Source: a virus
Virus record (IMG/VR): IMGVR_UViG_3300017698_000036
Coordinates: 32,001-96,000 of that record
Reading direction: 5' to 3' (one strand)
Length of the DNA stretch: 64,000 nt
The first letter of the stretch is position 1. Every line of letters begins with the position of its first letter. Positions 5,225-62,846 of the stretch are shown here, piece by piece. Below the pieces are notes generated by a model that was given only the letters and a program-made list of their open reading frames with translations, was not told where the DNA came from and searched no databases. The translations under genes were made by a program, and so were the position numbers.

Positions 5225-5824
5225 ATGAGTGCAATACTTGGGTTAGATATCAGTACTAGTTGTGTAGGTATAGCTATTTTAGATGACTATACGGGAGATT
5301 TATTGTCTACCAAACATATAGAGTTGAATAAAAAGGTAAAGAAGGTGCCGGAGTATAAGGATTTGTGGGACAAGGCGGATAAGATGTACGATGTTTTAAA
5401 GGAGATATCTGAAAATGAAAACATCAGTATGGTGTATATTGAAGCTCCAGCAAAGGGTGGTTTTGGTGGTAAAACTAATGCCAACACCATTACCAACTTG
5501 ATACAGTTCAACAGTATGATCAGTTGGATGGTTCGTAGGTTATTTAATCACAAACCAGAGTATATTAATGTAAGATCTGCCAGGAAGATATGTGGTATTG
5601 GAGGTCTCAAAGGTACCCCCAAGGAGAACAAGACAAAGGTTTGTGAGTTTTTTATTGACGAGTATCCACAGTTTGTGGTAGAGTATACTAGATATGGTAA
5701 TATAAAGACTCAATGTTTGGATGAGAGTGATGCCATCTGTATTGCAAAGGCTGGATATATAGGTAAAATTAAAATAGTGAAAAATAAACGAAAAAAAGGA
5801 CAAATAAGTCATTTCTTCTCTTGA
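5225..5824 (+). CDS. RuvC-like Holliday junction resolvase
   Basis: RNase H-fold motifs ILGLDISTSCVG, VYIEAP and DESDAICIA. Confidence 0.85.
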   Translation: MSAILGLDISTSCVGIAILDDYTGDLLSTKHIELNKKVKKVPEYKDLWDKADKMYDVLKEISENENISMVYIEAPAKGGFGGKTNANTITNLIQFNSMISWMVRRLFNHKPEYINVRSARKICGIGGLKGTPKENKTKVCEFFIDEYPQFVVEYTRYGNIKTQCLDESDAICIAKAGYIGKIKIVKNKRKKGQISHFFS

Positions 5825-5849
5825 CACGAGACCGGTTTTACACTATAAT
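5821..5849 (+). promoter_or_regulatory. Consensus sigma70 promoter upstream of primase
   Basis: TTGACA (5821-5826), 17 nt, TATAAT (5844-5849). Confidence 0.85.
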
Positions 5850-6911: not shown

Positions 6912-9900
6912 ATGAAAATAGCGCATGTATCCGATACACATATACATAACTTACGATACCATCACGAATTCAGAGAAGTGTTTGAGGAGCTGTTTCAGAC
7001 TTTAAGGATGGAGAACGTGGATTATATCGTGCATACAGGTGATATAGTACACGGTAAAACAGTCATCAGTCCGGAATTGGTACGTTTAACTGGTTATTTT
7101 TTAAATGAACTAGGTAAGATAGCCCCGCTGTATGTCTTATTGGGCAATCATGACGGCTTGGTTAAGAATAAGAGCAGGGATAACGCTATCTCTTCTATTG
7201 TTTCAAATCTAGATAATAACAGTATATATGTATTCGACGGATCGGAGACGGTTGAGGTGGGTGATAATCTGACACTTACATCTTTTTCCATATTCGAGTC
7301 TAAGGATAATTGGATATTGAATCCAGAGAATAATGATAGAGTTAATATTGCATTATATCATGGGTCTGTGGGTAGAGAGTTGGACGGAAATCTAATGTAT
7401 GACAACGGACACGTAATGTCTTCGGACGATGTGTTAAGTATAGATACATTCAGTGAGTATGATTATACAATGCTGGGACATATTCACACATGTCAAGAAT
7501 TGAATGAAGATGGTACCATAGCTTATGCCGGCTCCACTGTACAGACCAATTTCGGAGAATCTCAGGAAAAGGGTTTCTATATATGGAATATTGACAGTGA
7601 TACTGAGTTTAGTAAAGAATTTATAGCATTGAACAATCCACATCCGTTCGTTACGTTAGATGTTGATGTAAAGAAGCCAACGTTCGTAAAGAATTTAAAG
7701 GCTGGGAAGTATAATTTACCTGAGGGTTGCAGACTTAGACTTGTTATAAAGAATGACGATGTTGGATATCGTGATGTAGAGGATATGTTCCGTGCGGTAA
7801 AACGAGAGATGAAGGTACACTCCACTCAGTGGATTCGAAAGCGAGTATCAAAGGTAAATACCAGTAAGGATAGTAACAGTAAGTCGTTATCTATCAGTCT
7901 GGATATGGAGACCCAAAATAGTCTTATAAAGGATAATTTACAGAATAGATTGAATATGAAGGATGATCAGTTGATAGCTGATATCGTTAAACTGAATCAG
8001 GACTATTTTAATGATGAAGAACGACGGGAAGATACAGAGTTAAACCGTAACTCTGTGTGGGAACTAAAGTCGATGGCGTGGAATAACCTATTCAGCTATG
8101 GCGAGAATAATGAATTCGATTTTGCAAAATATGATGATGGTGAAGTGGTTGGTATATTTGGATCTAACAGGTCTGGTAAGTCCAGTATTATAGACACTCT
8201 TCTTTTTGGTCTTTTTGGTAAGACGTCTAAGAAGGTTGGCCCCAATTCGAATATTATTAATAAACGTAGAAATGGTGGTGATGTAGTAGTAGAACTGGAA
8301 ATAGACGGTGTTACATATATCGTAGACAGAAGGTTGAAGCGTGCCATCAATAAGTATAATAAGGACGGATCCTTAAAGATTAAGGATCCTAAAAATCCCA
8401 GAGCTAACTTATCCAACTCTTCAGTCGAGTTCTATACCGTGGATAATAACGGAGTTATGGATACTAATCTGATAGATACCACTAGATTCAGTTCAGATCA
8501 TGTAATACAAAGTCGTATTGGTGATCTGGATGATTTTACACTTGGTTCACTCTCAACTCAGTTTAACTCTCTACAGTTTGTTGATAATACCAAGTCTGAA
8601 CGTAGAGATATCTTAAAACGTGTACTTAATTTGGATGTATTGGATGATAGGTATGAACGAGCACTTTCTGAGTTTAACTATATAAAAAAGAAATTAAAAC
8701 GAGAGTCCAAGGGTGGTTATACTAAGTTGATCAAAAAGGCCAAGTCGAATATAGAAGTATCAACGGCCAAGTTGGAGGACGAAAAAACACGTCTTGTTAA
8801 TATTAAAGAAGAGATTTCACAACTTAGAGATATGATAAAGACTCAAGAGTATGTCGTTATTGACTTTGAGAGGAATGGTGTTGAGGATATAGATATAGAG
8901 TCCGAGAAGCACGAGTTTAATAAGTTTAAATCTTACCTAAAAAGTACTATGGACGAGATAGTGGCTCTGGAGAGTTCTATAGTTGAGAGTAAAGATAGGA
9001 TCGAGAGGGGTGACGACTTGTTATCCACCTTCGATCGAGAGGAGTATGAGGGGAGAATTTCGGAAATAGAAAATATGGAAACTGATATCTCCGAAAAAGA
9101 GAGTAGTATTGAGATCCTATTGGCCGACATTAAACGTGACAACACTCAGTTAGAGACTGGAGCGGATGTTCCATGTAGGGGTACTGATTATTTTTATAAT
9201 TGTAACTATATACATGAGGCCGTGGAGATAATGAAGGGCCTCGACGAAAAGAAAGATAACAGGGAGAGGTTACAGGAAGATATTAAGACACTCAGAGAGG
9301 ACCTAGAGGGGAGATTGGGAACGAGAGATGAGTATAATAAATTTATAAAGGTATCGGATGTAATAAAGACAGAGAGACAGAAACTGCAGCTACTAAAAAG
9401 TAATCTAGAAAAGAAGATCTTATTTAAGACCGACGTTGAGCGTAAATTAAAACAGTGCGAAGAAAACATGACCAGTTATAATAACTCTAAGGTCAAGATA
9501 GACAATTATCAAAACACCAAAAACACCTTGGAGAAAATCAAACAAGATCTTATACGTCGTGAAAGAGAGAGCCAGGATGTTAATGATGATATTATATCGG
9601 ACTCTAAAGAGTTGGGTGTATTAGAGAACGTGCCCACGGAATTGGAGGGTAAGTTGCAGGAGAAGATTAACCTGGAGTATAGGTATGATCTATATGAGGC
9701 GTACACCAAAACTATAGGTGGTAAGACGGGTATATCTTTTGATATCCTGAAACAGTATATTCCGGTTATTAATAGAGAGATAGAGTCGGTGTTGAAGGGT
9801 ATCGTGGGTTTTATAGTGTATTTTCAAGTGTCGGACAGTGGTAGTATAGAAATTAGAATAGCTGATTCCCACGGAGACACTCCTATAGAGACGGGATCCG

Positions 9901-10169
9901 GAATGGAAAAACAGATGGCCTCCATCGCGATTCGGTTGGCGATTGTTAATATAACTTCTGTACCACACTCGAATGTGTTTTTACTCGATGAACCAATGGG
10001 AGCGTTGGATGATAATGCATTACAGGATTTTGTTAAGATACTGGAGGTTTTAAAACATAAATTTGATACGGTATTTTTGATAACACATAACATTTTACTT
10101 AAAGACGTGGTGGATAGAGTTATTGATGTTGAGAGAGATGAGGATGATATTAGTATCATTAGGGAGTAG
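6912..10169 (+). CDS. Fused SbcD/Mre11 nuclease - SbcC/Rad50 ATPase (T4 gp47+gp46-like)
   Basis: Metallophosphoesterase motifs DTH, GD, GNHD and GHIH; Walker A GSNRSGKS; coiled coil with central Cys pair; signature GSGMEKQ; Walker B/D-loop LLDEPMGALD. Confidence 0.9.
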   Translation: MKIAHVSDTHIHNLRYHHEFREVFEELFQTLRMENVDYIVHTGDIVHGKTVISPELVRLTGYFLNELGKIAPLYVLLGNHDGLVKNKSRDNAISSIVSNLDNNSIYVFDGSETVEVGDNLTLTSFSIFESKDNWILNPENNDRVNIALYHGSVGRELDGNLMYDNGHVMSSDDVLSIDTFSEYDYTMLGHIHTCQELNEDGTIAYAGSTVQTNFGESQEKGFYIWNIDSDTEFSKEFIALNNPHPFVTLDVDVKKPTFVKNLKAGKYNLPEGCRLRLVIKNDDVGYRDVEDMFRAVKREMKVHSTQWIRKRVSKVNTSKDSNSKSLSISLDMETQNSLIKDNLQNRLNMKDDQLIADIVKLNQDYFNDEERREDTELNRNSVWELKSMAWNNLFSYGENNEFDFAKYDDGEVVGIFGSNRSGKSSIIDTLLFGLFGKTSKKVGPNSNIINKRRNGGDVVVELEIDGVTYIVDRRLKRAINKYNKDGSLKIKDPKNPRANLSNSSVEFYTVDNNGVMDTNLIDTTRFSSDHVIQSRIGDLDDFTLGSLSTQFNSLQFVDNTKSERRDILKRVLNLDVLDDRYERALSEFNYIKKKLKRESKGGYTKLIKKAKSNIEVSTAKLEDEKTRLVNIKEEISQLRDMIKTQEYVVIDFERNGVEDIDIESEKHEFNKFKSYLKSTMDEIVALESSIVESKDRIERGDDLLSTFDREEYEGRISEIENMETDISEKESSIEILLADIKRDNTQLETGADVPCRGTDYFYNCNYIHEAVEIMKGLDEKKDNRERLQEDIKTLREDLEGRLGTRDEYNKFIKVSDVIKTERQKLQLLKSNLEKKILFKTDVERKLKQCEENMTSYNNSKVKIDNYQNTKNTLEKIKQDLIRRERESQDVNDDIISDSKELGVLENVPTELEGKLQEKINLEYRYDLYEAYTKTIGGKTGISFDILKQYIPVINREIESVLKGIVGFIVYFQVSDSGSIEIRIADSHGDTPIETGSGMEKQMASIAIRLAIVNITSVPHSNVFLLDEPMGALDDNALQDFVKILEVLKHKFDTVFLITHNILLKDVVDRVIDVERDEDDISIIRE

Positions 10170-10175
10170 TCTGTT

Positions 10176-10805
10176 GTGGAAATAAAGTTTAGAAGACCGG
10201 CATTGTCTTGTGTTTGTAGCTACATAGAAAGAGGTAGTGGTGTACGTTTATATGATTGGCAGAGAGGTTATGTCGATATGTTGGTTGATGAACGTACTAT
10301 ATTTGTTTTAAAACCTAGACAGGTGGGCATGTCGTATATAAATTTATGGTATGTAGACTATCTCGTTAGTAATTTCGAAAATGTTAATGTATGTATGGGA
10401 TATCTGTCTAAAAACAGGGCCACTATGGAACAGAGTCTTATTCGCTCACGTGGTAACGGATATCCCGACTTTTTATGTAAACAGAATAGTAGAGTAAGAG
10501 TCGATGCTGCATCGCGCGCACTTCGTCACTATTCACGTGATCACACGAATTATCTGTTTCTAGATGAGTATATGTTCATACAGAGTATGCCGGATATAAG
10601 AGCATTGATGACTAAGTACGATTATATATTTGCCAGTTCTACTCCAAATGGGAGTTCTACATACTACAAGGTGTTCAAGTTGCCCAATGATGATTATGTC
10701 ATCGATATAGGTGGGGTTATATATAAAGTTTATGATACAGATGAGTTGGCTCAGTTTTCCAATTCACGTCTAAATGTTAATTCGCACACATTTAGTCTAT
10801 TTTAA
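10176..10805 (+). CDS. Stand-alone terminase-large-subunit-like ATPase domain (GTG start)
   Basis: LYDWQ, LKPRQVGMS, LFLDEYMFI and ASSTPNG mirror LYDYQ, LKGRQLGIS, LIIDEAAFI and VLSTPFG of TerL at 15137; no nuclease domain. Confidence 0.7.
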   Translation: MEIKFRRPALSCVCSYIERGSGVRLYDWQRGYVDMLVDERTIFVLKPRQVGMSYINLWYVDYLVSNFENVNVCMGYLSKNRATMEQSLIRSRGNGYPDFLCKQNSRVRVDAASRALRHYSRDHTNYLFLDEYMFIQSMPDIRALMTKYDYIFASSTPNGSSTYYKVFKLPNDDYVIDIGGVIYKVYDTDELAQFSNSRLNVNSHTFSLF

Positions 10806-10844
10806 AAGCTATTACTATTTCAAAAAAAGGAGGATTAAGTAGAC

Positions 10845-11660
10845 ATGATTTATAAAAAAGGAGTACAGAGACCTATGGTTATGGGAATTCAGGAGGTTAT
10901 TAGAGCCTCTATTGATGGATTCTTTGGTTCTATAACAGAGCAAAAGGTGAAGGACTACCAAGCAGATAATGGTTTTGAACAAACTGGTGAAGTGGATCAG
11001 GATTTGTTGGACCACATGTTTAAAGATGGAATGCAGGTAACCTATAGGGTACTTGAGGTTATCGCGTGTTTTGAGATCGGGTTCAAGAGACAAGCCTGGG
11101 GCGCAACAAGTGTTGTACCTGGTGATGGAGCCGGTACGAACTATGGTGTTATGCAGGTCAATAAGTACGGTTCGATGCAACTGATGAAGAAGTATTACAT
11201 GCCAGCTGGAGAGGACTTTACAGATTGGATTGGTTCTATCAATGGTGCAAAGGCTCAATACCGATACTTCCTGGATCGTATATGGTCAGGAGCTACGGCA
11301 TTTGCTTATAAGGTTGGGGATACGTCTCCACGGGCAGTAGCCTTGTTCTGTGACGCGATTGTTCAAGGGGGTCACACTATGCCGTCAAAGGCTCCTAAAA
11401 CTTGGAGAGATTGGCAACTGGATGGAAATTATCTTGAGTTGGTAAAGCACAACTATGAAGAGGATACCGTACGTAGGGCATTTATTAAGTCTGTCATGAG
11501 CTATAGCCCTCCTGGAAGGGCCTTTGCCGAGATACATCCTAGATCGGGTAATTTGAAGTTTTTAGATGATCAACTTAGTAGACGTAGAACAGTTATCACT
11601 GGTCAAGGAATTGTACATGGTGATAGATACGATATGGACCTGTTTGGTTTGTTTGATTAG
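10845..11660 (+). CDS. Putative endolysin (peptidoglycan-binding domain + lysozyme-fold glycosidase)
   Basis: FFGSITEQKVKDYQADNGFEQTGEVD is PG_binding_1-like; FE...GDGAGTNYGVMQ resembles the lysozyme/chitosanase-fold catalytic signature. Confidence 0.7.
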   Translation: MIYKKGVQRPMVMGIQEVIRASIDGFFGSITEQKVKDYQADNGFEQTGEVDQDLLDHMFKDGMQVTYRVLEVIACFEIGFKRQAWGATSVVPGDGAGTNYGVMQVNKYGSMQLMKKYYMPAGEDFTDWIGSINGAKAQYRYFLDRIWSGATAFAYKVGDTSPRAVALFCDAIVQGGHTMPSKAPKTWRDWQLDGNYLELVKHNYEEDTVRRAFIKSVMSYSPPGRAFAEIHPRSGNLKFLDDQLSRRRTVITGQGIVHGDRYDMDLFGLFD

Positions 11661-11672
11661 GGGAGTCTTATA

Positions 11673-12005
11673 ATGACGCTTATCGACAGTATTAAGGGAA
11701 AGTACGATAGGGGTAAGTCTGCGTTTGATGTGTGGGAGGAGAGTGGACTTCTCGAAGGTCTACTTCTGGAGCATCAAAAGATAGTGGTCGAGTTTTTAGA
11801 TTTATGGTATATTGAGATATTGAAGATGAGAGACCCTACAACTGACAGCAGTTTTTACACTAAAGATGAGGTTGAGAGTTTTGCGTATATAGGGTTTCCT
11901 ATCGTAAGAAGAATTCTACAACCACTTTTAGAAAAATATGAATTGGTTTTGAGGACGGATGATGATGGTAAACATTCACTATTTTCGAAAACGTATAAGG
12001 AGTAA
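11673..12005 (+). CDS. Mini-protein homologous to major capsid N-terminus, with C-terminal DDGKHSLFS tag
   Basis: WEESGLLEGL and VESFAYIGFPIVRRIL match MCP WTKTGLLKGI and VEGFASVAFPLVRRIF; GGGAG SD. Confidence 0.75.
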   Translation: MTLIDSIKGKYDRGKSAFDVWEESGLLEGLLLEHQKIVVEFLDLWYIEILKMRDPTTDSSFYTKDEVESFAYIGFPIVRRILQPLLEKYELVLRTDDDGKHSLFSKTYKE

Positions 12006-12011
12006 AGATAA

Positions 12012-12329
12012 ATGAAGAAGGATATATTAAGTCAGCTTAAAGGAAGACAGTGTGAAATTACAACAATACCTACTGATGAGGAAAAACTCCGATTAGTAGA
12101 CAAGTGGACATTCGCCGGTCTTCTCGACGGGTTAGAGATTTCCGATAAAACTAAGTTGGCTATGATGTTAGAACTGACATCAATGTCACTTATTGAGTGT
12201 ATTAAGATAGAGGAGGAGATAGGTAGTGAGGTAGATATTGATCAATCGGCCGCCATAGTTTTTCCTATGATTGTGCGTACCTTCCACAGTATGAACGACT
12301 ATGGTCTTAAAATAGAACATAAGGAGTAA
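12012..12329 (+). CDS. Second mini-protein homologous to major capsid N-terminus
   Basis: KWTFAGLLDGL...KLAMMLE...SLIE...AAIVFPMIVRTF matches MCP KWTKTGLLKGI...NLAVLLE...SLITE...ASVAFPLVRRIF; AAGGAG SD. Confidence 0.75.
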   Translation: MKKDILSQLKGRQCEITTIPTDEEKLRLVDKWTFAGLLDGLEISDKTKLAMMLELTSMSLIECIKIEEEIGSEVDIDQSAAIVFPMIVRTFHSMNDYGLKIEHKE

Positions 12330-12335
12330 GTATAA

Positions 12336-13178
12336 ATGAAAAAAGAAGATAAAAAAGATGTACTGGTTGATGAGTGTACAAACGGTCTGCCCATCACCAT
12401 CGGGGTACCTGATGAGAGTGGAGATCTTAAGGCTGTAACCAATCCCAAACTAAAGGAGACGATTGAGTTGGGTAAAAAGATGCAGGCCGATGAAAGAAGT
12501 CATCAGAGTGAGGAAGACCGTGCACGCGGTGAGGCTATTGTAACCAACATTATAGATACCGTCTCTACAGAACTCTTGGGAGAAGAACCTGAAGAAAAAT
12601 GGCCTCCCAAGATGGATACTGATACGACGGTTAAGGGTGATCCACCCACTACAGAAGAGGCCAAGATTAATAAGGAGTTTGCAATCAAGAGAATTTCAGG
12701 TGAGTTGGATCTATCTGACGAACCTCCAGAGTGTAAATGTGGGGGAGAATGTACGTCACACAACACTCTGGCTGAGGCGGTGGGTATGAAACCTGGTGAT
12801 TTCGATAAGTTGGATCACTATGATGAGCTGGTCAAGGAGAATGGGAAGTTGAAGGAAGAAAAAACTAGATCCGATTTGTGGCAGGCCGATAAAAGAGGGT
12901 TTATGGATAGAGCCCTTGGCAAATTCGCGAGTAGAAAACTGTTAGCTTTTGCAGTTACCACCATAGCCTTCTTCATGGGTCTACTAGTGTCACAGTACTA
13001 TATGGCCATCGTTATGTGTTATATTGGTTCACAAACTGCAGTAGACATCTTTAATCGCGTTAAGCTACCAAGTGTAACCGACGCAGCCTGGGAATCACTG
13101 TCTCGTCGTAATAACACTGTTCCACAAAAACAGTCAGTCGAAAGTAAACCGACGTTAAAAAATAAAACATTTAACTGA
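12336..13178 (+). CDS. Putative holin-like membrane protein with long acidic N-terminal region
   Basis: Two short hydrophobic helices after SRKLL near the C-terminus; lies between the endolysin and spanin-like genes. Confidence 0.45.
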   Translation: MKKEDKKDVLVDECTNGLPITIGVPDESGDLKAVTNPKLKETIELGKKMQADERSHQSEEDRARGEAIVTNIIDTVSTELLGEEPEEKWPPKMDTDTTVKGDPPTTEEAKINKEFAIKRISGELDLSDEPPECKCGGECTSHNTLAEAVGMKPGDFDKLDHYDELVKENGKLKEEKTRSDLWQADKRGFMDRALGKFASRKLLAFAVTTIAFFMGLLVSQYYMAIVMCYIGSQTAVDIFNRVKLPSVTDAAWESLSRRNNTVPQKQSVESKPTLKNKTFN

Positions 13179-13283
13179 TTGATTTACTTATAGAAACTCC
13201 CACCTATCCCACCTCTCGAAATTTAAGTCTCACACAAAACTCACAAATCAAATAATTACATACATAACAAAGGGGAATATGAC

Positions 13284-13667
13284 ATGATGAATTCTATTAT
13301 ATATTTTGTAAAAGACTACTACCCTATTATGATCATTTGGGTTGTTATTACACTTGCCATTACGGGTCTGGTAAATAGTTGTAACAAGCGAGAGATTCGT
13401 AGATTGGAGAGTATCGTTAAGATCGACAAAGAGTACCACACCAAAGAAGTTAAAATACTCAAAGACACCCACGATAAACAACTTCAGGCTGTTATAGATA
13501 TACGTGATAAGTATGATGTCGAAATAAAGAAGGTTACAGAACAGTACCGCGACAACCTACAGACCATAAAAGAACAACAAGGTGTGGTGTATGATAAGTA
13601 TCTCAAAAACCAGGAACTTATGAGTCAGATGTTGACTAAATATTTCGGAATAAAACTTAGGAGATAG
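13284..13667 (+). CDS. Putative spanin-like protein (N-terminal TM + coiled coil)
   Basis: Hydrophobic IMIIWVVITLAITGLV followed by a charged helical region. Confidence 0.45.
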   Translation: MMNSIIYFVKDYYPIMIIWVVITLAITGLVNSCNKREIRRLESIVKIDKEYHTKEVKILKDTHDKQLQAVIDIRDKYDVEIKKVTEQYRDNLQTIKEQQGVVYDKYLKNQELMSQMLTKYFGIKLRR

Positions 13668-13671
13668 TTCT

Positions 13672-14145
13672 ATGAAATATATATTATTTATTTTGTTAAT
13701 GTTGACCTCTTCAGCGGTATGCGCCCAAACGAAAGATGCTAGTTCGATGGCCTTGGGTTTACAAAAGGGTGAGTTTTCTATAGTAATGAAGGGAGAGACT
13801 AATTTATTTTCTGGTTATCTGATATCGTTCGAAGGAGTGGCCAATATAATCAGTACCTTTGATACTATGAAAAAAGAGTTTGAACTAAAATTACAAAATA
13901 CAGTAGACTATCATACGCTTCAATCTAAGAAGAAGGAAGACATTTGTTTAAAACTGAGAGAGACGGATAGGGACAAGTATGAGTCTTTGTTGGCACTCAA
14001 GGAAGAACAGATAGCGAAGCTTAAGAAAAACTATAATCCTGTTAAGAAACCATTTTTCGGTACTTCATTTTGGACAGGAGTGGCCATCGGAGTCGTAACC
14101 AGTGTGGTGATAGTATACGGTGGTTTATATTTATACAACAAATAG
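13672..14145 (+). CDS. Putative spanin-like exported membrane protein
   Basis: Signal peptide MKYILFILLMLTSSAVCA, coiled coil and C-terminal TM FWTGVAIGVVTSVVIVYGGLYLY. Confidence 0.45.
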   Translation: MKYILFILLMLTSSAVCAQTKDASSMALGLQKGEFSIVMKGETNLFSGYLISFEGVANIISTFDTMKKEFELKLQNTVDYHTLQSKKKEDICLKLRETDRDKYESLLALKEEQIAKLKKNYNPVKKPFFGTSFWTGVAIGVVTSVVIVYGGLYLYNK

Positions 14146-14497: not shown

Positions 14498-15133
14498 TTG
14501 TTAATGGAAAATAAAGAAAAGAGACCCGCGAGTCCAAGACCCGAACTTAAGCACAACAATGAAACGTTAGAGGTACTTAAGGCTCTCGGACAGATCAGTG
14601 GTAATAACCATCATGGTGCAATTGACAAACAGTATGATAAACTTGATCGAGGTCTAAGATCTGACAGCGGTGACATGCCTACAGGATATCAAGGTAAGGA
14701 ATTAATCGACGCATTCGACTTCAGAGTATTTTCTGACATACTGGTTTTGAACTACCATACAGAGGCAACCACGAAAGACGTGCACAAGAATGGTAAGGGT
14801 AAATATGAAGAAGAGATTAAGGGAGTTATGCAGGCCAATATTGACTTCATAAAAAAACGTTTCAAAGAGATTACAGGAAAAGAATTACAGTTAACCTCCA
14901 TGGGTGAACCCAATATGCTGTTCGATTATATGAACACACATCGTAGTTGGTTAAGAGCTCAGTGGAAGTTTAAGATAGGAAATCTAAAATCCATATCTTC
15001 AGAAGAATTAACCGGTGAATATCATGACGATATTAGAGGTATAACAGGACAGGGACTGGAAGAGTCTTTTGATTTGGGAGCCTGGATTAATTCTACAAGA
15101 GAAGATAGATATAAAAATCTACTGGACGATTAA
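14498..15133 (+). CDS. Hypothetical protein directly upstream of TerL
   Basis: 211-aa ORF with GAGGT SD, tightly packed; no motif recognised. Confidence 0.6.
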   Translation: MLMENKEKRPASPRPELKHNNETLEVLKALGQISGNNHHGAIDKQYDKLDRGLRSDSGDMPTGYQGKELIDAFDFRVFSDILVLNYHTEATTKDVHKNGKGKYEEEIKGVMQANIDFIKKRFKEITGKELQLTSMGEPNMLFDYMNTHRSWLRAQWKFKIGNLKSISSEELTGEYHDDIRGITGQGLEESFDLGAWINSTREDRYKNLLDD

Positions 15134-15136
15134 TAA

Positions 15137-16840
15137 ATGCCCCCAAGAAAACGAAGGAAGAATAAAAACGGACTAACCTCGGCTCAAGTTAAGGAAGTTA
15201 GAAGGTGTGCAGCCGATCCAGAATATTTCATAATGAACTATTGTAAGATCAGAACACACAAGGGCGCCGTATTATTCAAACTCTATGACTATCAGAGAGA
15301 GTTACTTGGTAAATTTCATAAAAATAGAAATAATATTATACTGAAAGGAAGACAGCTGGGGATATCTGAGTTATCGGCCGCATTTTCGAACTGGTTAATA
15401 GTGTTTCATAAGCATAAAACTGTGTCTATATTGGCTACTGACATGAAACAAGCCATTCACCTTATGGACAAGGTTAAACTTTCGTATGATAATTTACCGG
15501 ACTGGATAAAAGCTCAAAACCCCAAAGAGAACGATAATCAACAGATGATTAAGTTGAAGAATGGGTCTAGTGTAATGTCCTATTCTTCTAGTGTCGATGC
15601 GGTACGTGGAACTACACCATCATTGTTGATTATTGATGAGGCAGCATTCATTGATGATATCGACGGTATATGGTCTGCAGCTAAACCGGCCCTAACGACG
15701 GGAGGGGCCTGTATCGTTCTTAGTACACCATTTGGAGCTGGTACTTGGTATCATAAACAGTGGTTGAACGCTATTGAGGGACTGAGTACTTTTGTACCCA
15801 CTCTTCTTATGTGGGATGTACATCCAGACCGGGATCAAGACTGGTATGCGCAGGAACTGTTGGACTTGGGTGAAAGAAAAATGGCCCAAGAGTATGAGTG
15901 CTCTTTCAACGCGTCCGGAGATACTGTAGTACATCCAGACATATTAAAGTATATAGAAGACAACTATATGTTAGATCCGGTGCACAAGATCGGTATCGAT
16001 GGTCAGTTGTGGATATGGGAAGAGTATAAAGACGGTCATGGGTACTGTATGTCGGTCGACTGTGCGCGGGGAGACGCAGAGGATTATCATGGTGCACACA
16101 TTATTGATACCACTACGATGGAACAGGTGGCAGAGTACCGAGGTAAGGTACCACTAGATGATTACTCTGAGTTTCTGTACAACCTGGCTCAACAGTATGA
16201 CAACCCGTTGATGGTAGTTGAGAATAATACGTATGGATATACTGTATTGAAGTCTTTACTCAAGAAGGGATATAAAAATCTTTATTACTCTAAAAGAAAA
16301 ACTAAGTATGATGAAGAAAAGATAGATTCCAAAAGAGGTATGTTACAAGACAATATGATCCCTGGATTTAATACCAGTGCATCCACAAGACCTATGATAG
16401 TGACCATTATGGAGAACTTCCTGAGAAACAAGACGATCAAAATACGTTCAAGTAGATTACTGAACGAACTCAGGTCGTTTATCTGGAAGGGACATAAACC
16501 TCAGGCCGCAAAAGGGTCACATGACGACCTGGTTATGTCTCTTTGTATAGGTTGCTTTATCGTCAACAATGTGTTTATTGAGGGCGGAGACAAAAGAAAG
16601 ATTAACATGGCCATTATGAACTCATTCAGAAAAAACAGTACTGTATTTAATACTGATACTGGACACTTAGCCGGTGTTGTTTATAGTGGGTCATCAATGA
16701 ATACACAACGTCAACAGTACATGGATACACATGGTAGATATGCTCGTATGTTGGATGATAGTGGTGGTCGAAAGAAAAGAAAAGTGGTAGACGATAATAA
16801 AAAGAAGAATGCATTCTTTTTACCGATCTATAAAGGATAG
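15137..16840 (+). CDS. terL: Terminase large subunit (T4 gp17-like)
   Basis: LKGRQLGIS Walker A, IIDEAAF Walker B, LSTPFG coupling motif; RNase H nuclease motifs SVDCARG, VVENN and HDDLVMS. Confidence 0.95.
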   Translation: MPPRKRRKNKNGLTSAQVKEVRRCAADPEYFIMNYCKIRTHKGAVLFKLYDYQRELLGKFHKNRNNIILKGRQLGISELSAAFSNWLIVFHKHKTVSILATDMKQAIHLMDKVKLSYDNLPDWIKAQNPKENDNQQMIKLKNGSSVMSYSSSVDAVRGTTPSLLIIDEAAFIDDIDGIWSAAKPALTTGGACIVLSTPFGAGTWYHKQWLNAIEGLSTFVPTLLMWDVHPDRDQDWYAQELLDLGERKMAQEYECSFNASGDTVVHPDILKYIEDNYMLDPVHKIGIDGQLWIWEEYKDGHGYCMSVDCARGDAEDYHGAHIIDTTTMEQVAEYRGKVPLDDYSEFLYNLAQQYDNPLMVVENNTYGYTVLKSLLKKGYKNLYYSKRKTKYDEEKIDSKRGMLQDNMIPGFNTSASTRPMIVTIMENFLRNKTIKIRSSRLLNELRSFIWKGHKPQAAKGSHDDLVMSLCIGCFIVNNVFIEGGDKRKINMAIMNSFRKNSTVFNTDTGHLAGVVYSGSSMNTQRQQYMDTHGRYARMLDDSGGRKKRKVVDDNKKKNAFFLPIYKG

Positions 16841-16845
16841 TTGAT

Positions 16846-18651
16846 ATGGGTAAAATAAGAGACGAACTGATTTTTAAAAAATTGAACAGACTTATGAACG
16901 GTCCTCTTGCCACGAGACGAACACAGGGAGCTCATAAACTAAAGAGAAGGTATCATAACAAGTACAACTATCAACAGGCCTCATGGAATAAGAATCAGGG
17001 TATTACCCGTGATGATTATCAATTATTCAAGGCCCTCAATCTAGAGGCCTTGGCAGACAGAAATAGAACTGCCAGATATATTGAGTTCGACAGTATGGAT
17101 TTCGTACCAGAGTTACATAGTGCACTTGATATATACGCAGATGAGATTACAACCTGCTCAGAACTAACTCCACTCCTACATATAGAGACTAAGAACGAAT
17201 CCATTAAGCAAATATTGGAAGAGCTGTTTTATGATGTGCTAAATTTGGAATCTAATCTGTTTGGTTGGGTTAGAAATATGGTAAAGTATGGTGATTACTT
17301 TATGTATCTAGATCTGGATGATACATACGGAGTTGTAGGTACAGCCCCATTACCCTTAAGGGAGATACGTAGATTTGAAGGGTTGGATCCGTTGAATCCA
17401 AACTATGTGAAGTTTAGTTGGGATTCAACGAAAAGAGAGTTTGAGAGTACACAGATCGCCCACTTTAGAATATACTCCGATGAAAAGTATGCTCCATACG
17501 GTGTTAGTGTTTTAGAGGGTGGAAGAAGGATATTTAGACAGTTGACTCTTATGGAAGACGCGATGATGGCCTACAGGGTCGTACGTTCTGCAGAAAGAAG
17601 AGTGTTCTATTTGGACGTTGGTGGTATTCCTCACGAATCTATTGAACCATATGTGGAGCAAGTAAGGTCTAGTATTAGACGTAATCAGATAGTGGACGAA
17701 GATACAGGACAGGTTACACTTAGATATAATGCTATGAGTATCGAGGATGATTACGTTGTACCAGTGCATGGAAGAGATTCTGCTACTAGAATAGAGACAC
17801 TTCCAGGTGGTCAATTTACAGGTGACATAGAAGACGTACAATATCTGAGAGACAAACTCTTCAGTGCTATAAAGATACCCCAAGAGTATCTCACTGCAGG
17901 ACGAGAGGCGGTAGATCAAGGTACTCTATCTCAGAAGGATATTCGCTTTGCAAGAACCGTACAAAGGTTACAACGCTATGTAATAGAGACTCTGCAAAGA
18001 ATAGCTTATACACATTTATATCTTTTAAAGTATCAAGGTAATGACTTGGTAGACTTCAAACTTAGACTCAATAATCCAAGTAGAATAGCCGAGTTACAGG
18101 AACTGGAACATTGGAAAACTAAATTGGATGTAGCGGTGGGTGCAGGTTTAGATGCCAGTTCTATGTTTAGTCGTAGATATATATTTGAAAAGATTCTTGG
18201 TATATCACCAGAAGAGTTTGATCGTAACAACAAAGAACTTGATACCGATAAGAGAATGCAGGCCAAACATGGTGCGTTAGAACAAGGCGCGGATGCATCT
18301 GGTGGTGGTGCAGGTGGAGCTTTGGATGATATGGGATTCGGTGAAGAAGGAGTAGAGGGTGAGGGAGAAGTCCCAACCGAAACAGACGATGACAGTATGT
18401 TGATTACATCCCCAGGTCGACGAGAGGCCAATCAGGCTGAAGAGTATTTAAGAGGTCAGGCGGAGAGGCGACGTGGTATTCATACAACTTCTGGAGCAAA
18501 GGGTAAGAAGTACAAAAGTGTGAGTAGTGACAAGAGAGATTTAGGGGCTAACACTAGACATAATAAGTCTCTCTATGGAGATCAATATATAGGCCGCTCC
18601 GACAGAAGTAAAAAGATTAAAGAGTCGGAAGATAAAGCAGATAAAGAATAA
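16846..18651 (+). CDS. Portal protein (T4 gp20-like)
   Basis: EDAMMAYRVVRSAERRVFYLDVG and IETLPGG gp20 motifs; follows TerL. Confidence 0.92.
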   Translation: MGKIRDELIFKKLNRLMNGPLATRRTQGAHKLKRRYHNKYNYQQASWNKNQGITRDDYQLFKALNLEALADRNRTARYIEFDSMDFVPELHSALDIYADEITTCSELTPLLHIETKNESIKQILEELFYDVLNLESNLFGWVRNMVKYGDYFMYLDLDDTYGVVGTAPLPLREIRRFEGLDPLNPNYVKFSWDSTKREFESTQIAHFRIYSDEKYAPYGVSVLEGGRRIFRQLTLMEDAMMAYRVVRSAERRVFYLDVGGIPHESIEPYVEQVRSSIRRNQIVDEDTGQVTLRYNAMSIEDDYVVPVHGRDSATRIETLPGGQFTGDIEDVQYLRDKLFSAIKIPQEYLTAGREAVDQGTLSQKDIRFARTVQRLQRYVIETLQRIAYTHLYLLKYQGNDLVDFKLRLNNPSRIAELQELEHWKTKLDVAVGAGLDASSMFSRRYIFEKILGISPEEFDRNNKELDTDKRMQAKHGALEQGADASGGGAGGALDDMGFGEEGVEGEGEVPTETDDDSMLITSPGRREANQAEEYLRGQAERRRGIHTTSGAKGKKYKSVSSDKRDLGANTRHNKSLYGDQYIGRSDRSKKIKESEDKADKE

Positions 18652-24110: not shown

Positions 24111-25898
24111 ATGAAAAATAGAAAAAGTGGACAACTTCTTATTGAACACATGGGTAGAATGAAACCTATCCATAAGGGTAATTTAGAATCCAAAAACCTA
24201 CAAGAGAGTATCAAGGTAGAGAACTTTTTAACAGAGTCAGAAATGAAGGGCGTAAGGGAGAATGGAGATCTCTATTTGGTAGGTATCATACAGGCTGCAG
24301 ACACCCTTAACGGTAACGGTAGGATATATCCCAGACCCATTCTAGAAAAAGAAGTCGCCAGATTTAAAAAGCAGGTTATAGGGGAGAACGGTGGATACGG
24401 TCATAATCAACATCCAGATTGTATAATTGAGACTGACAAACCAGAAATTCTTACAAAATATGGTTGGAAGAGAATTTCAGAAGTTAATGTTGGTGATTCC
24501 GTATATACATACAATACAAAGTCCGACAGTATGGAGTTGCAGAATACTACCAAGGTTGTGAATGAGTTTTATTCTGGGGATGTATATAACATCAAGGGTA
24601 AGAATATAGATCTAACAGTAACCCCTAATCATAGGTTTTATATGAAGGATAGAAAGGGTGAGGGTTATTTCGTAACGGCTGAAGATTTATATGATAATCA
24701 GACACGTCATGGTCATTCTAGTATACCAAAATTGGCCAACTGGGAAGGCGAACATCCAGAGTATTATGAAATACCGGCTCTAGATGATTCTTTTTACAAA
24801 CATAATCATCATATGTTCAAGCCGGAGTATAGAAGTCCACTGAAAATAAAGACGTCTATATTTACCAAGTTTTTAGGTATATGGTTGGCGGAAGGTCATG
24901 TTGGTAAAGATCATACAAGTAACAATAGTGTGACCATTACTCAAAATGAAGGAACCACGGCCAACAGGATAAGGGATCTGTTTAAAGAGTTGCCTTTTAG
25001 TGTGACGGAAAGGGTTAGGATGAATGAGTTTGGTAGTAAAAACATTCAATTTACATTCAATTCCCCACAATTGGCCAACTACTTAAGAGGTTTGGGGGAC
25101 GTGTATAGTAAGTATATACCTCATGATGTTAAACAATTGTCAACCAGTCTGTTAAGTGATTTATATGAATGGTACCATATGGGGGACGGAAGAACGGCAA
25201 ACGGTCAAAAGAACATATTCAGTATATCAGAAAAGATGATGGATGATTTTCAAGAAGTCCAACTTAAGATTCAAAAGACTGGTAATATAGTTAAAAGAAA
25301 GCCGGTTGATAGATATATAGGAAATAGGTTGATAGAGGCCAAAAATTCTAGATCATTACATATATTATATCATAATGTAACCAAGGGTATGTATTTACGT
25401 CCCGGAGTGGTTACCATAAGAAAGAAACGGTATGAGGGCAATGTTAGCTGTGTATCTGTTCCCAATTCCACCTTTTATTCCAGAGTAAATGGAAAGGTAG
25501 TGTTGACGGGAAATTCAGAAGATATCGACATAAGAGAAATATCTCACAGGATGGTTGATGTATGGTGGGACGGTAACAATGTGATGGGTAAGATTCAGGT
25601 ACTACATAACACCCCTGGCCAGGATCTAAGAAACCTAATTACTATGGATGGTATGAATCCCGGTATCTCTAGCAGGGCCGTCGGTTCTATTCATGAAGAT
25701 TATAATGGTAATACGATCGTAGAGGAAGATCTTAATATTATATGTTGGGATATGGTGGTTACCCCCTCTACTCCATCAGCATATATGATGCAAGAAACAT
25801 ATAACTCTAAGATGTATGAGTCCACAAATACAAAAACCGACGATCGCACCAAAGACGTGAGAGTTAAGTCACTTTTAGAGGACATAGTACGAGGTTAA
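24111..25898 (+). CDS. Prohead core protease (T4 gp21-like) interrupted by an intein
   Basis: IIQAADTLNGNGRIYPRPILEKEV, HPD, ISH and GISSRAVGS gp21 motifs. Confidence 0.92.
   Translation: MKNRKSGQLLIEHMGRMKPIHKGNLESKNLQESIKVENFLTESEMKGVRENGDLYLVGIIQAADTLNGNGRIYPRPILEKEVARFKKQVIGENGGYGHNQHPDCIIETDKPEILTKYGWKRISEVNVGDSVYTYNTKSDSMELQNTTKVVNEFYSGDVYNIKGKNIDLTVTPNHRFYMKDRKGEGYFVTAEDLYDNQTRHGHSSIPKLANWEGEHPEYYEIPALDDSFYKHNHHMFKPEYRSPLKIKTSIFTKFLGIWLAEGHVGKDHTSNNSVTITQNEGTTANRIRDLFKELPFSVTERVRMNEFGSKNIQFTFNSPQLANYLRGLGDVYSKYIPHDVKQLSTSLLSDLYEWYHMGDGRTANGQKNIFSISEKMMDDFQEVQLKIQKTGNIVKRKPVDRYIGNRLIEAKNSRSLHILYHNVTKGMYLRPGVVTIRKKRYEGNVSCVSVPNSTFYSRVNGKVVLTGNSEDIDIREISHRMVDVWWDGNNVMGKIQVLHNTPGQDLRNLITMDGMNPGISSRAVGSIHEDYNGNTIVEEDLNIICWDMVVTPSTPSAYMMQETYNSKMYESTNTKTDDRTKDVRVKSLLEDIVRG
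24420..25514 (+). mobile_element. Full-length intein with LAGLIDADG homing endonuclease (365 aa)
   Basis: Begins Cys (HPD|CIIET), ends VVLTGN|SEDI with +1 Ser; FLGIWLAEG and WYHMGDG LAGLIDADG motifs. Confidence 0.9.
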
Positions 25899-26889: not shown

Positions 26890-28071
26890 ATGATGAGTCT
26901 TATAGATAAAGCCATAGTCGACGCGAAAAACATTAAAGAGCTGGCTAATAAAAGTGCTGAGTTGAAGTTGTTGGAAAAGTTAGAACCGGTAAAAAAGACT
27001 ATCGCTCAAAAACTATTAGAACAGGAAGATTTTGGTTTAGACGATGAAGAGATGGAAGAGCTCCCTATGGACGATATCATGGGTGATATCGAAGGAGAGA
27101 TGGGTGGTCTAAATCCCGAAGAAGAAGGCTTTGTTGGAGAGATTCCTCAAGCTGCAACAGACGGAGAGAAGCTTTGTACCTGTGCTGGTGAAGATGAAAC
27201 CGGCAAGGGTGAAGAGGTTACTGTTACGTTGGATAAACTAGTTGACTTGGCTGAACAGGAACTTAAGAAATCCCTAAAAGCCGAAAAGGATCTTTTAGAG
27301 ACTATGACTGGTGGAGAAGTAGATACCGATGAAGAGGTAGACGTAGATCCAGTAGACGAGACCCTAAAGGAAGAGGATGAGGTGGTCTCATTGACGTTGG
27401 GTAAACTCACAGAGATCGTTTCAGCTATCACCGAAGAGCTCGTCTTCAATTACAAGTTTCAACCCACTGGCCATATAGGACGACCCAATGATATAGAGGT
27501 TGGAGAGTTTGAAGAACTTCAAAAAGTAATGGCCGCACTAGAAGAGTCTGTTGAAAGATTGAATGGTGAAAAATCAGGTTTGGTAGAAAAATATAATTCT
27601 TTAAAAGAGAAATATAATAAACTACATACTAAGGCTACTGAGAAACTTAAAGAGGCCACAGAGGAGCTTAAAGAATCCCGCGGCACAATCAAAAGAGAGA
27701 CACGTGAAGTGGAAGAGTTAAAACTGGAAAATGTTAAACTTACCGCAATCAATAAAGTGTTAACTAATAAAAAATTAAACGAAAAACAGAAAGGTAACAT
27801 AGTTAGTGTAATAAAAGACTCTATGACCGTTAGAGAGGTCAAGATGAACTTTAATACGGCAATGAAGCTCGTAGAAAATGTGGACGCAAAACGTAACTTA
27901 TCTAATAGACGTGGTCGAGTAAGTAAAGCCACTCTGAGTGAAATTAAAGCAACCATGAGCAAGAAAGGAAATATTGTTGAAAGTTCGAACACTAAAAAAG
28001 AGTCTTCTAATAGTATTTTAGGTCCTAATGAAAGAACATTACGTATGGCCGGAATACAGTTGGACGATTAA
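26890..28071 (+). CDS. Prohead core/scaffold protein (gp22-like)
   Basis: Acidic, long coiled coil, many [LI]xE sites; immediately upstream of MCP. Confidence 0.8.
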   Translation: MMSLIDKAIVDAKNIKELANKSAELKLLEKLEPVKKTIAQKLLEQEDFGLDDEEMEELPMDDIMGDIEGEMGGLNPEEEGFVGEIPQAATDGEKLCTCAGEDETGKGEEVTVTLDKLVDLAEQELKKSLKAEKDLLETMTGGEVDTDEEVDVDPVDETLKEEDEVVSLTLGKLTEIVSAITEELVFNYKFQPTGHIGRPNDIEVGEFEELQKVMAALEESVERLNGEKSGLVEKYNSLKEKYNKLHTKATEKLKEATEELKESRGTIKRETREVEELKLENVKLTAINKVLTNKKLNEKQKGNIVSVIKDSMTVREVKMNFNTAMKLVENVDAKRNLSNRRGRVSKATLSEIKATMSKKGNIVESSNTKKESSNSILGPNERTLRMAGIQLDD

Positions 28072-28119: not shown

Positions 28120-29898
28120 ATGTCTATTGTAAAACAACTTATGGAAAACAGAGTATCTCCGGTCAAAAGAAATGATCGTGAAACTGCTCGTAAAATGAAA
28201 AAATGGACCAAGACTGGTCTTTTAAAAGGTATTAAGGATGAGCAAGCTGTAAAGAATCTCGCTGTTCTCTTGGAGAATCAAGCCGAGTCTCTTATTACAG
28301 AAGCTTCCACAATGTCTGATGGTGCTGTTGAAGGTTTTGCCTCTGTAGCATTCCCCCTTGTACGAAGAATCTTTGGAGCTCTCATTGCTGACAGTATCGT
28401 ATCTGTTCAACCTATGAGCCTCCCCGCAGGTCTGGTATTCTTCCTTGACTTTACTTATACTGATACTAAACTTGGATATACCGCAGGTAAATCCGTGTAT
28501 GGTGGTGAAGTAGTTGGTGCAGGAATCGCCGGTGGTGTTGACCTCGATAATGATAATGGTTTCTATAACCTTAATACTGGTTACAGTTCTCCTGAATGGG
28601 TAGCTGAAAACGTAGCCGATATCGTATCCGCAGGTACTCTTGCTGACGATCAATTCCAAAATGTAGACTTCACCAACGGTGGAGCCGGCCCTTTCACAAG
28701 AGCCCAAATTATCACCAACGCTGATCAAGCTGACGTAGATTACGACGAAGACATTCTCACTGATGACGGTACTTGGTACTACAACAAATATGCTATTAGA
28801 CTTGCTACCACTGAGTGGGATAGAGTACAGTTTGATAATCTCGTATCTATGTTGTTTGCAGATCCTACCGCAGGAGCAAGTCTCTTTGGTGCAACAGCTG
28901 AAGTAGTTAGACGACTTAGTGACGTTACTAGTACTACTAACAGAACTATTAAGTTCTTAGTAAGAGCTACTAACATTGCTCATGTACCTATCTCTACAGC
29001 CAGTACAAAAGCTATTAACTGGGAATTCACAGTTAACGACAAGTATAAAGAAGGTACAAGTCTCGGTACAATCCTCGGTGAAGATTGGCACTTAGAGGGT
29101 CCAGATACCAGAACATCTGGTGCTGGATATGAAGATATGGCAGAGCTTGACATTAAGATCAACTCCCTGCCTATCGTAGCTCAAACCAAAAAACTTAAAG
29201 CTAAGTGGACCCCTGAATTGGGACAAGACCTCAACGCTTATCATAATGTAGATGCAGAAGTAGAACTTACTGGTATCCTCTCCGAACATATCGCTCTTGA
29301 GATCGATAGAGAGATTATCCTTGACTTAGTTAAGGGTGCAACAGCAGGTACTTATTTCTGGAACCGTAATCCTGGTAACTTTGTTAACAAGACTACTGGT
29401 GTTCTCATTACTGGCGCAACTGCTCCTGACTTTACCGGTAACGTATCTGAATGGTACGAAACTTTGCTTGAAACCATTAATGACCTCTCTGCAGTTATCT
29501 ACAGAAAGACTCTTAAGGGTGGGGCTAACTTCCTCGTATGTGGTCCCGAAGTATGTTCCTTGCTTGAAATGACCAACGGATTCCGCGCACAACCCATGGG
29601 TCCAGATGTAGCTACTACTTCTGCTGGTGTTGTTAAAGCTGGTTCTATTACTAAAAAATGGGATATCTATGTTGATGTATACTTCCCCAGAAACCTTATC
29701 CTTGTAGGAAGAAAAGGAAATTCTTTCTTAGAATCAGGTTATGTGTATTCTCCATATGTACCTCTTCAAGTCACCCCCACAATCTTTGGTACCGAGGATA
29801 TGACACCTAGGAAAGGTGTGATGACTCGATATGCTAAGAAAATGGTCAAGCCTGACATGTACGGTCTCGTTCGTGTAATCAACCTTATCCAAAAGTAA
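28120..29898 (+). CDS. Major capsid protein (T4 gp23-like)
   Basis: FPLVRRIF...SVQPMSLPAGLVFFLD, KKLKAKWTPELGQDL...EIDREI, YSPYVPL and PRKGVMTRY; probable maturation site LITE/AS. Confidence 0.95.
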   Translation: MSIVKQLMENRVSPVKRNDRETARKMKKWTKTGLLKGIKDEQAVKNLAVLLENQAESLITEASTMSDGAVEGFASVAFPLVRRIFGALIADSIVSVQPMSLPAGLVFFLDFTYTDTKLGYTAGKSVYGGEVVGAGIAGGVDLDNDNGFYNLNTGYSSPEWVAENVADIVSAGTLADDQFQNVDFTNGGAGPFTRAQIITNADQADVDYDEDILTDDGTWYYNKYAIRLATTEWDRVQFDNLVSMLFADPTAGASLFGATAEVVRRLSDVTSTTNRTIKFLVRATNIAHVPISTASTKAINWEFTVNDKYKEGTSLGTILGEDWHLEGPDTRTSGAGYEDMAELDIKINSLPIVAQTKKLKAKWTPELGQDLNAYHNVDAEVELTGILSEHIALEIDREIILDLVKGATAGTYFWNRNPGNFVNKTTGVLITGATAPDFTGNVSEWYETLLETINDLSAVIYRKTLKGGANFLVCGPEVCSLLEMTNGFRAQPMGPDVATTSAGVVKAGSITKKWDIYVDVYFPRNLILVGRKGNSFLESGYVYSPYVPLQVTPTIFGTEDMTPRKGVMTRYAKKMVKPDMYGLVRVINLIQK

Positions 29899-62845: not shown

Positions 62846-62846
62846 G

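Follow-up and report, generated by a model that had tools for sequence, protein, structure and literature searches.

Phage genomes are known to carry duplicates of their own essential morphogenesis genes whose role has changed, examples being the vertex protein gp24 of T4 and a prohead-protease paralogue of phage SPN3US (PMC5694885). Those duplicates are full-length and have a complete fold. Here we describe a stretch of viral DNA in which single N-terminal domains of two morphogenesis proteins, the large terminase subunit (TerL) and the major capsid protein (MCP), have been copied and kept as separate genes. One open reading frame (ORF) corresponds to about 200 of the 567 residues of TerL, and two others, called mini1 and mini2 below, to about 90 of the 592 residues of the MCP. 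The stretch, referred to as the window, is 64,000 nucleotides (nt) long and covers bases 32001-96000 of the IMG/VR record IMGVR_UViG_3300017698_000036. No stand-alone TerL-ATPase or MCP-propeptide paralogue, nor any structural-protein decoy, was found in the searchable literature, the coverage of which is incomplete; an earlier, sequence-only reading of the window, which had singled out these ORFs, knew of no description of such a clustered module.

The N-terminal propeptides of T4-type and giant phages lie inside the prohead, bring proteins to its core and are cut off by the protease (PMC9958956; PMC5694885). The T4 capsid protein gp23 is cut after residue 65 (PMC9958956); its propeptide lines the prohead interior, in which shell and core have to touch, and is removed by gp21, and the core also has small non-essential proteins (PMC9958956; PMC5694885). 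The core and internal proteins of T4 (gp67, gp68, IPI-III and Alt), together with the giant-phage propeptides, are comparable to the minis as small, non-essential and fast-evolving; they reach the prohead through a core-contacting N-terminal segment that a gp21-type protease handles (PMC9958956, PMC5694885). The minis differ in lying outside the head module, in being the MCP's own propeptide domain without cargo and in showing no similarity to gp67, gp68 or gp22. An N-terminal helical assembly domain of the capsid protein, either fused or free-standing, is also provided by the delta domain of HK97-type phages and by separate scaffolding proteins. The phage studied here, however, has a scaffold-like coiled-coil gene and a full MCP propeptide; the minis are additional to both and absent from relatives, and therefore are not the scaffold.

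The TerL copy is closest to the nuclease-less packaging ATPases of the phi29 gp16 type and to the isolated ATPase domain of T4 gp17 (PDB 2O0H), with which it shares the core of the additional-strand, catalytic-glutamate (ASCE) ATPases, including Walker A, Walker B and the C-motif. The gp16 protein is the sole motor of its phage, whereas here a complete TerL co-exists with the copy, which is without the last lid helices and has a C-terminal SLF tail. Parasites of phages encode small accessory proteins that attach to components of the capsid, scaffold or terminase and alter assembly or packaging, such as Sid of P4, CpmB of the Staphylococcus aureus pathogenicity islands (SaPI) and, acting on terminase, Ppi and Rpp of the phage-inducible chromosomal islands (PICI). 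These proteins are not homologous to their targets, whereas the homologues described here are encoded by the very phage whose proteins they resemble.

The complete contig is a linear viral sequence of 138,656 bp, about 70% complete, with nearly all genes on the + strand. By its sequence, this uncultured phage belongs to the distant T4-like myoviruses: the MCP shares 35% identity with the capsid protein of Microcystis phage Mel-JY01 and is related to those of Rhodothermus phage RM378 and of two huge metagenomic phages and to T4-type MCPs. The 144 ORFs of the 138.6-kb contig were compared with each other by all-against-all BLAST. The only pairs in which a short ORF matches part of a long protein involve the TerL copy and the two minis, and the resemblance is therefore more than chance. 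The sequence-only reading had reported three intact, tightly packed ORFs around an endolysin gene; they are present where it placed them, on the + strand, and the spacing within the cluster is 6-39 nt (table 1).

Table 1. The domain copies, their full-length parents and the other features discussed, in window coordinates.
Feature	Position	Strand	Remarks
Sigma-70-type promoter, perfect consensus TTGACA-17-TATAAT	5821..5849	+	heads the presumed unit primase-like / Mre11-Rad50 / cluster; sole perfect match in the window (0.04 expected)
Fused Mre11-Rad50 (SbcD-SbcC, T4 gp47/gp46-like) nuclease, upstream neighbour of the TerL copy	6912..10169	+	Pfam Metallophos, AAA_23, SMC_N; syntenic in all relatives
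Stand-alone TerL ATPase-domain paralogue (TerL copy)	10176..10805	+	209 amino acids (aa); GTG start; no nuclease domain; ends in FSLF
C-terminal S-L-F of the TerL copy (putative docking-type tail)	10794..10802	+	kept as CSLF at the end of orthologue P0122
Endolysin	10845..11660	+	271 aa; PG_binding_1, E 2.4e-9; homologues in relatives adjoin the same holin-like protein
Mini1, free-standing MCP N-terminal propeptide/N-arm domain with C-terminal beta-hairpin tag	11673..12005	+	110 aa; alignments, AlphaFold2 (AF2), orthologue L040:3058-3423
DDGKHSLFSK tag inside the mini1 hairpin	11961..11990	+	motif shared with six other small ORFs; NDGMGSLFSE in the L040 orthologue
Mini2, tandem duplicate of the mini, this phage only, tagless	12012..12329	+	105 aa; alignments; single mini in L040
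Holin-like membrane protein	12336..13178	+	residues 174-244 (C-terminal transmembrane region) conserved in L040, L053, L054, L055 and L005
Putative small terminase subunit, TerS (w211)	14498-15133		by position
Full-length TerL, parent of the ATPase copy	15137..16840	+	Terminase_6N; phrog_5989, E 6e-45
Portal	16846-18651		
Prohead protease	24111-25898		Peptidase_S77, E 1.8e-23
Scaffold-like coiled-coil gene	26890-28071		
gp23-type MCP, parent of the minis	28120..29898	+	592 residues; N-terminal alignments

The TerL copy aligns with residues 48-205 of the window TerL (23% identity, E 1e-7) and matches the PHROG terminase-large-subunit families phrog_2 (E 1.2e-7) and phrog_5989. In the ESM Atlas it is placed among Terminase_6N clusters at 0.97; there is no match in Pfam, PF03237 being below every threshold. 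Aligned with the clade TerLs, it proves to have kept YDWQR as its Q-motif, KPRQVGMS as Walker A, LFLDE as Walker B and STP as the C-motif; D130, E131, R48, Q49 and G51 are invariant, and an Arg about 9-10 residues ahead of Walker B matches a near-invariant Arg of the TerLs. The family-specific motifs GG-x-IYK-x-Y and C-terminal SLF are absent from TerL. The copy stops at residue 209, about 50 residues past the C-motif, and the endolysin is the next gene; the RNase H-like nuclease domain and the last lid helices are missing. As there is no nuclease domain in the same polypeptide, the protein is a paralogue of the TerL ATPase domain and not a TerL. By its motifs it appears to be nearly the whole ATPase domain rather than a remnant. 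The AF2 model has an alpha/beta fold of low confidence (predicted local distance difference test, pLDDT, 56; predicted template modelling score, pTM, 0.60), and Foldseek returns weak, generic RecA-like matches for it, the T4 gp17 ATPase domain among them.

In the TerLs of the clade (the window TerL and those of L004-L008, L026-L030 and L040) Walker A is of a deviant form, K-[AG]-R-Q-L-G-I-S: the lysine of GK[ST] is missing and a lysine stands at the start of the loop. The Walker A lysine of lambda gpA is likewise at the loop start. The copy and its orthologue share the deviant form of the clade (K-x-R-Q-x-G-x-S), unlike a more distant TerL (L010), which has the classical GKT, and the copy is therefore read as a duplication inside the clade. 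The nearest clusters in the ESM Atlas are large families of Terminase_6N-like proteins of 200-270 aa, one of which, without a Pfam family, has 323 members, 94% of them archaeal (Nitrososphaerota). These Atlas entries may be fragments, or proteins of the TerL-ATPase type may be widespread in stand-alone form.

The minis align with about residues 19-89 of the MCP (mini1, E 2e-6; mini2, E 3e-9) and with each other (E 0.002), and the N-termini of the clade MCPs are their best matches. A genome-wide search with the MCP N-terminus finds two extra places only, mini1 and mini2; a possible third mini with the motif FVRRVY (genome 137521-137958) is not significant (E 0.11). In a multiple alignment with T4 gp23 and the MCPs of relatives, the minis correspond to the N-terminal propeptide and the next helix (W-x-x-TGLL-x-G ... 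FP-x-VRR); the residues W, LL, G, L and P do not vary among the minis and seven MCPs. Both end at or before the motif VSVQPM that opens the MCP core, so that the HK97 core (A and P domains, E-loop) is absent, and neither has a Pfam match. Without this core they are not members of the gp23-type MCPs (PF07068); they have the N-terminal propeptide/N-arm. Where the sequence-only reading spoke of truncated mimics of TerL and MCP, the homology was thus confirmed by BLAST and PHROG matches, but its wording needs correction, since the TerL piece is nearly a whole ATPase domain and the supposed mini-capsids consist of propeptide and N-arm only.

An AF2 model of mini1, made from a 22-row alignment, has four helices and a C-terminal beta hairpin at 89-108 (pLDDT 86.7, pTM 0.78). 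Mini1 is thus confidently predicted to be a compact, autonomously folding domain, and the model may serve as a first structural hypothesis for the propeptide domain of T4-type MCPs. Foldseek finds no credible match for it in PDB or BFVD; the missing PDB match fits the propeptide being cleaved off at maturation. The Atlas search with mini2 gave no credible match. At the position of the T4 cleavage site LTE65, all clade MCPs have L-x-x-E followed by A, S or T, and mini2 has SLIE-C.

Among 1.84 billion representatives searched exhaustively with HMMER, a single protein proved to be related to the TerL copy (P0122, 220 aa, E 2e-4). It is carried by an 8.9-kb contig (L040) whose portal, endolysin and TerL are 76%, 64% and 59% identical to those of the window phage; scans based on TerL gave only relatives at 46% identity or less, and this sole close relative came from the HMMER search. 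The gene order of L040 is that of the window: Mre11-Rad50, TerL copy, endolysin, one mini, holin-like protein and, further on, TerL. P0122 has KRRQVGMS as Walker A and FDE as Walker B and also retains the Q-motif and the terminal SLF; every catalytic motif is present in the TerL copy and its orthologue alike. Elsewhere, a set of 50,697 phage records searched by tblastn with the three ORFs gave nothing useful, pattern scans found no relatives of mini2 among viral contigs or of the TerL copy among metagenome contigs, and among 5.8 billion proteins the sole matches to a profile of the minis and MCP N-termini were real MCPs, truncated or frameshifted, that continue through VSVQPM...LDF.

In the relatives at 42-46% TerL identity (G001/L005, L053 and L055), the frame of Mre11-Rad50 ... 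w127, w157, w138, w211 and TerL is kept and neither copy is present. In L055, Mre11-Rad50 is followed directly by the endolysin and then directly by the holin-like protein, and in L053 the endolysin/holin-like pair is inverted. The conserved transmembrane C-terminus of the holin-like protein is always beside the endolysin in the relatives compared, a position from which we infer that the protein is a holin. Because this pair is adjacent in relatives that have no copies, the cluster is read as two separate insertions: the TerL copy and the mini appear to flank an older endolysin/holin-like pair in a variable spot, an arrangement common to the window phage and L040 only.

Among five far-T4-like genomes compared, the 484-kb phage LR756508 has its own nuclease-less paralogue of the TerL N-terminal part (288 aa; L038:1216-2082; PF03237, E 2.9e-10) and a probable mini of 114 aa resembling the MCP N-terminus (L023:1486-1830; E 0.0015 for a one-genome search). 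The two are 115 kb apart. On this evidence domain-sized copies of TerL and MCP recur, those of LR756508 independently, and their clustering does not. The earlier idea of a single clustered module has accordingly to be given up, the copies being separate insertions on either side of the endolysin/holin-like pair and the analogues of LR756508 being far apart. The N-terminal segment of the LR756508 TerL paralogue resembles, by eye, a ribbon-helix-helix DNA-binding motif.

All ORFs of the cluster have Shine-Dalgarno sites 8-9 nt from the start (GGGAG 9 nt upstream for the TerL copy). Both minis end in KE-stop, and the AAGGAG ribosome-binding site of the next gene lies within their last codons. The TerL copy starts 6 nt past the stop codon of the Mre11-Rad50 gene, and in L040 the two genes overlap by 4 nt. 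In-frame codon scores are 0.24-0.30 bits per codon (0.26 for the TerL copy), the genome mean being 0.32 with a standard deviation of 0.14, and off-frame scores are strongly negative. Between the window phage and L040, nonsynonymous divergence (dN) reaches 0.86 in the TerL copy and lies at 0.71-0.84 in the minis, compared with 0.33 for TerL, 0.17 for the portal and 0.29-0.52 for neighbouring genes; the copies thus diverge 2-5 times faster than core genes. Synonymous divergence (dS) is saturated, so that dN/dS is not estimable. As the orthologues in L040 are intact despite the saturated synonymous sites, the copies are real genes under selection rather than debris. Decayed duplications, which the sequence-only reading had named as one of the outcomes that would count against it, are thus not what is found: the orthologues are intact, codon use is genome-typical, gene order is shared with L040, and the copies are lineage-specific and fast-evolving, as accessory or conflict genes would be.

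The cluster probably belongs to a unit headed by the perfect sigma-70-type promoter of table 1. Between this promoter and position 13178 there is neither a strong + strand terminator nor the motif AATAATTA. This motif is a late-promoter candidate, found on the + strand directly upstream of many structural genes; its copy nearest to the cluster is at 13251, downstream. RATAATTA (window 1348, 3940, 13251, 18647, 21617, 31884, 35769, 39008, 39584, 41815 and 63239) has 11 of its 12 copies on the + strand, mostly just upstream of gene starts. Its count is not over-represented in the window, its placement fits a late promoter, and the T4 late promoter TATAAATA is not enriched. This arrangement of motifs suggests that the cluster is transcribed early or middle, together with the genes behind the 5821 promoter.

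The TerL copy and mini1 share an SLF motif with other proteins of the genome. Twelve of the 144 ORFs end in x-[QS]-L-F, LF being by far the commonest C-terminal dipeptide, and seven small ORFs have (D/N)DG(K/R)xSLFS a few residues from the end; the expectation for SLF is 0.0065 per 15-residue tail. SLF motifs are present on about 19 small proteins in all, the TerL copy, mini1 and about 17 others (window 10794-10802, 51117-51701 (end) and 62146-63218; beyond the window, genome 97714-138626). Many of the tagged genes stand last in small operons and are followed by sigma-70-like promoters. The Gln, Leu and Phe codons of the tags vary synonymously, so that the peptide is under selection. All 13 tagged proteins tested are ORFans: none of ten [QS]LF-ended proteins tested has a PHROG family, and three further tagged proteins have no significant Pfam family. 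G001 has no SLF tags. A hidden Markov model of the tag does not match the MCP N-termini, so that the hairpin tag of mini1 is not detectably MCP-derived.

Interleaved with the tagged genes is a ten-member family of leucine-rich-repeat-like (LRR-like) proteins of 96-179 aa, with a conserved N-terminus and 22-residue repeats L-x-L-x-x-TNIT-x-LPD-x-L-x-V-x-G (window 52818-53240; genome 96315-97033, 118340-120842, 123807-124097, 126514-126810 and 129935-130330). The family has no Pfam match and is a candidate for the tag receptors. The tail connects the TerL copy and mini1 with a larger system. Shared C-terminal docking tails are known from the beta clamp (QL[SD]LF), from HslU and as HbYX/GQYL. T4 offers a precedent in gp43, gp55 and gp33, which dock on the gp45 clamp through one C-terminal motif (PMC2988020). 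The likeness lies in a short hydrophobic C-terminal motif, under selection at the protein level, on several unrelated proteins of one phage; the T4 motif, however, is hydrophobic and acidic and is found on three known proteins, whereas here an x-[QS]-L-F end or DG-x-x-SLFS is found on about 19 ORFans. As regards clamp binding, neither a DNA polymerase B nor a gp45-type clamp was found in the 70%-complete contig. An HslV-like protease was also considered as the hub of the tags and set aside, having no Pfam or PDB sequence support.

The copies most likely act by imitating their parent proteins. The form of imitation that we favour, tentatively and at less than an even chance, is that they are accessory partner-mimics that modulate head assembly and DNA packaging. 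On this reading the genes arose inside the clade when the 5' parts of terL and the capsid gene were duplicated, were inserted on either side of the endolysin and have been kept by selection. The minis would occupy the binding sites of the propeptide domain on the scaffold core, the prohead protease, neighbouring MCP subunits and possibly a chaperone or EF-Tu, and would then be built into the prohead core or compete with the MCP. The TerL copy, whose catalytic centre is predicted to be intact and which has no nuclease domain, would act on TerL assemblies or on what these bind (TerS, portal, DNA ends), either as a member or as a competitor. The SLF motif might link both to a hub shared with about 17 other small proteins. 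The absence of the copies from G001, L053 and L055 argues for a non-essential, accessory nature, and the recurrence of such copies in LR756508 also speaks for this proposal.

Several observations weigh against modulation of assembly. Fast divergence is odd for proteins that have to fit conserved partners, and the position of the TerL copy, abutting or overlapping the Mre11-Rad50 gene, could be a sign of a role in DNA-end metabolism instead. Neither mini1 nor its L040 orthologue has the Glu of the maturation site (L-x-x-E then A or S), and the minis lack similarity to the T4 core proteins named above. The cluster stands behind a sigma-70-type promoter, together with replication and repair genes and with no late-promoter-like motif, and such an early-type context fits a conflict or regulatory role better than co-assembly with late head proteins. 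Finally, every binding partner, the early co-transcription and the effect on assembly are what we infer.

No phage proteins are more widely sensed than the capsid protein and the large terminase, which are also central to virion assembly. Single domains of both, copied, kept and rapidly reshaped as separate genes, would provide a natural set of competitors for their binding partners. Should the copies regulate or sabotage assembly, they would offer handles on TerL ring formation and on the meeting of the gp23 propeptide with the scaffolding core, the structure of which is unresolved (PMC9958956).

The early-type context, ahead of the late proteins that are imitated, would also suit decoys against host defence, the possibility that the sequence-only reading had put first. 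On this account, early-made copies bind the host sensors of terminase and capsid (signal-transducing ATPases with numerous domains (STANDs) of the Avs type, CapRel-like toxins, or Lit-like proteases acting with EF-Tu) without triggering them, or shield the sensed surface; we consider this unlikely. The copies are lineage-specific, lie in a variable spot and diverge faster than core genes, as reported above, and their tail motif is common to many small ORFan genes of early-type operons. The TerL copy, however, retains catalytic residues that a passive decoy does not obviously need, and it has no nuclease domain; Avs3 also contacts the nuclease domain of TerL. As to Lit, residues 93-122 of gp23, which read PAVMGMVRRAIPNLIAFDICGVQPMNSPTG in the T4 record, are what we take to be the 29-residue Gol stretch. 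All minis keep the first half of the equivalent stretch (FP-x-VRR-x-x-x-L); the second half, where conservation is highest (VSVQPM-x-x-P-x-G), has been replaced in mini1, and mini2 does not have it. In T4 the part of gp23 that triggers Lit is its N-terminal quarter, which does bind EF-Tu (PMC3014915). The idea that the minis could serve as decoys for Avs sensors fares badly, since according to a preprint (10.64898/2026.01.04.697583) these sensors enclose the core folds of the proteins they recognise, and the HK97 core is what the minis lack. Literature searches found no phage decoy of this kind, and if the copies were decoys they would represent a new anti-defence principle.

The copies may instead have acquired new functions with no link to morphogenesis, the TerL-derived ATPase acting on DNA ends with a translationally coupled Mre11-Rad50 and the minis being clients of a C-terminal-tag system whose hub might be a clamp, a protease or the LRR-like family. 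The close junction with the Mre11-Rad50 gene, overlapping in L040, agrees with this, as does the conservation of the catalytic motifs while the rest of the TerL copy diverges and gains the family-specific GG-x-IYK-x-Y and SLF. So do the 12 [QS]LF-ended and 7 DG-x-x-SLFS ORFs with selection at the protein level, and the interleaving of the LRR-like paralogues with the tagged genes. Relatives with the same Mre11-Rad50 gene, however, are without the ATPase copy, and the most conserved columns of the minis are those of the MCP N-termini (W, GLL-x-G, FP-x-VRR), which suggests that the parental surface or fold still matters. Of the hubs mentioned, the contig shows no clamp or DNA polymerase, and the HslV-like candidate lacks sequence support. 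Loss of the morphogenesis link is in our view improbable.

A combination of these ideas would make the two copies clients of a phage-encoded network of tags and receptors, formed by the roughly 19 tagged small proteins and the LRR-like family, and place or time them as early mimics, through which the host would sense capsid and terminase less well or competing phages or satellites would be hindered in their assembly. This is a speculative reading to which we give little weight; if true, it would be self-derived mimicry of structural proteins of a kind that is undescribed. That the copies are functionless, whether as decaying partial duplications or as recombination scars, is very improbable: they are fragments of neighbouring essential genes in a genome with mobile elements, but 105-209-codon frames are open in AT-rich DNA, with strong ribosome-binding sites, genome-like codon use and strongly negative off-frame scores, the L040 orthologues are intact at saturated synonymous divergence, catalytic and C-terminal motifs are conserved and mini1 is confidently predicted to fold.

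The genes around the holin-like protein were also read by eye. The ORF at 13672-14145 resembles a unimolecular spanin, having a signal-like N-terminal segment that ends in AVC and, at the C-terminus, a transmembrane helix, and that at 13284-13667 has an N-terminal transmembrane helix and a coiled coil; with the endolysin, in which no catalytic domain was identified beside Pfam PG_binding_1, and the holin-like protein they form a probable lysis cassette. The mobile elements of the genome include an apparent intein with a LAGLIDADG-like part in the prohead protease (sub-threshold Pfam matches), a Hint domain associated with Hom_end (E 4.9e-17), probably also of an intein, in a DnaB-like helicase (56751-58592) and a homing-endonuclease-like ORF after the MCP gene. 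Several metagenomic MCP relatives (P0100, P0083, P0121, P0052 and P0039; contigs up to 194 kb) have a normal sequence as far as ...FFLDF, past which the frame enters unrelated sequence and meets a stop. Such a break at one conserved site in the capsid gene hints at a homing element, an intron or a frameshift that has recurred.

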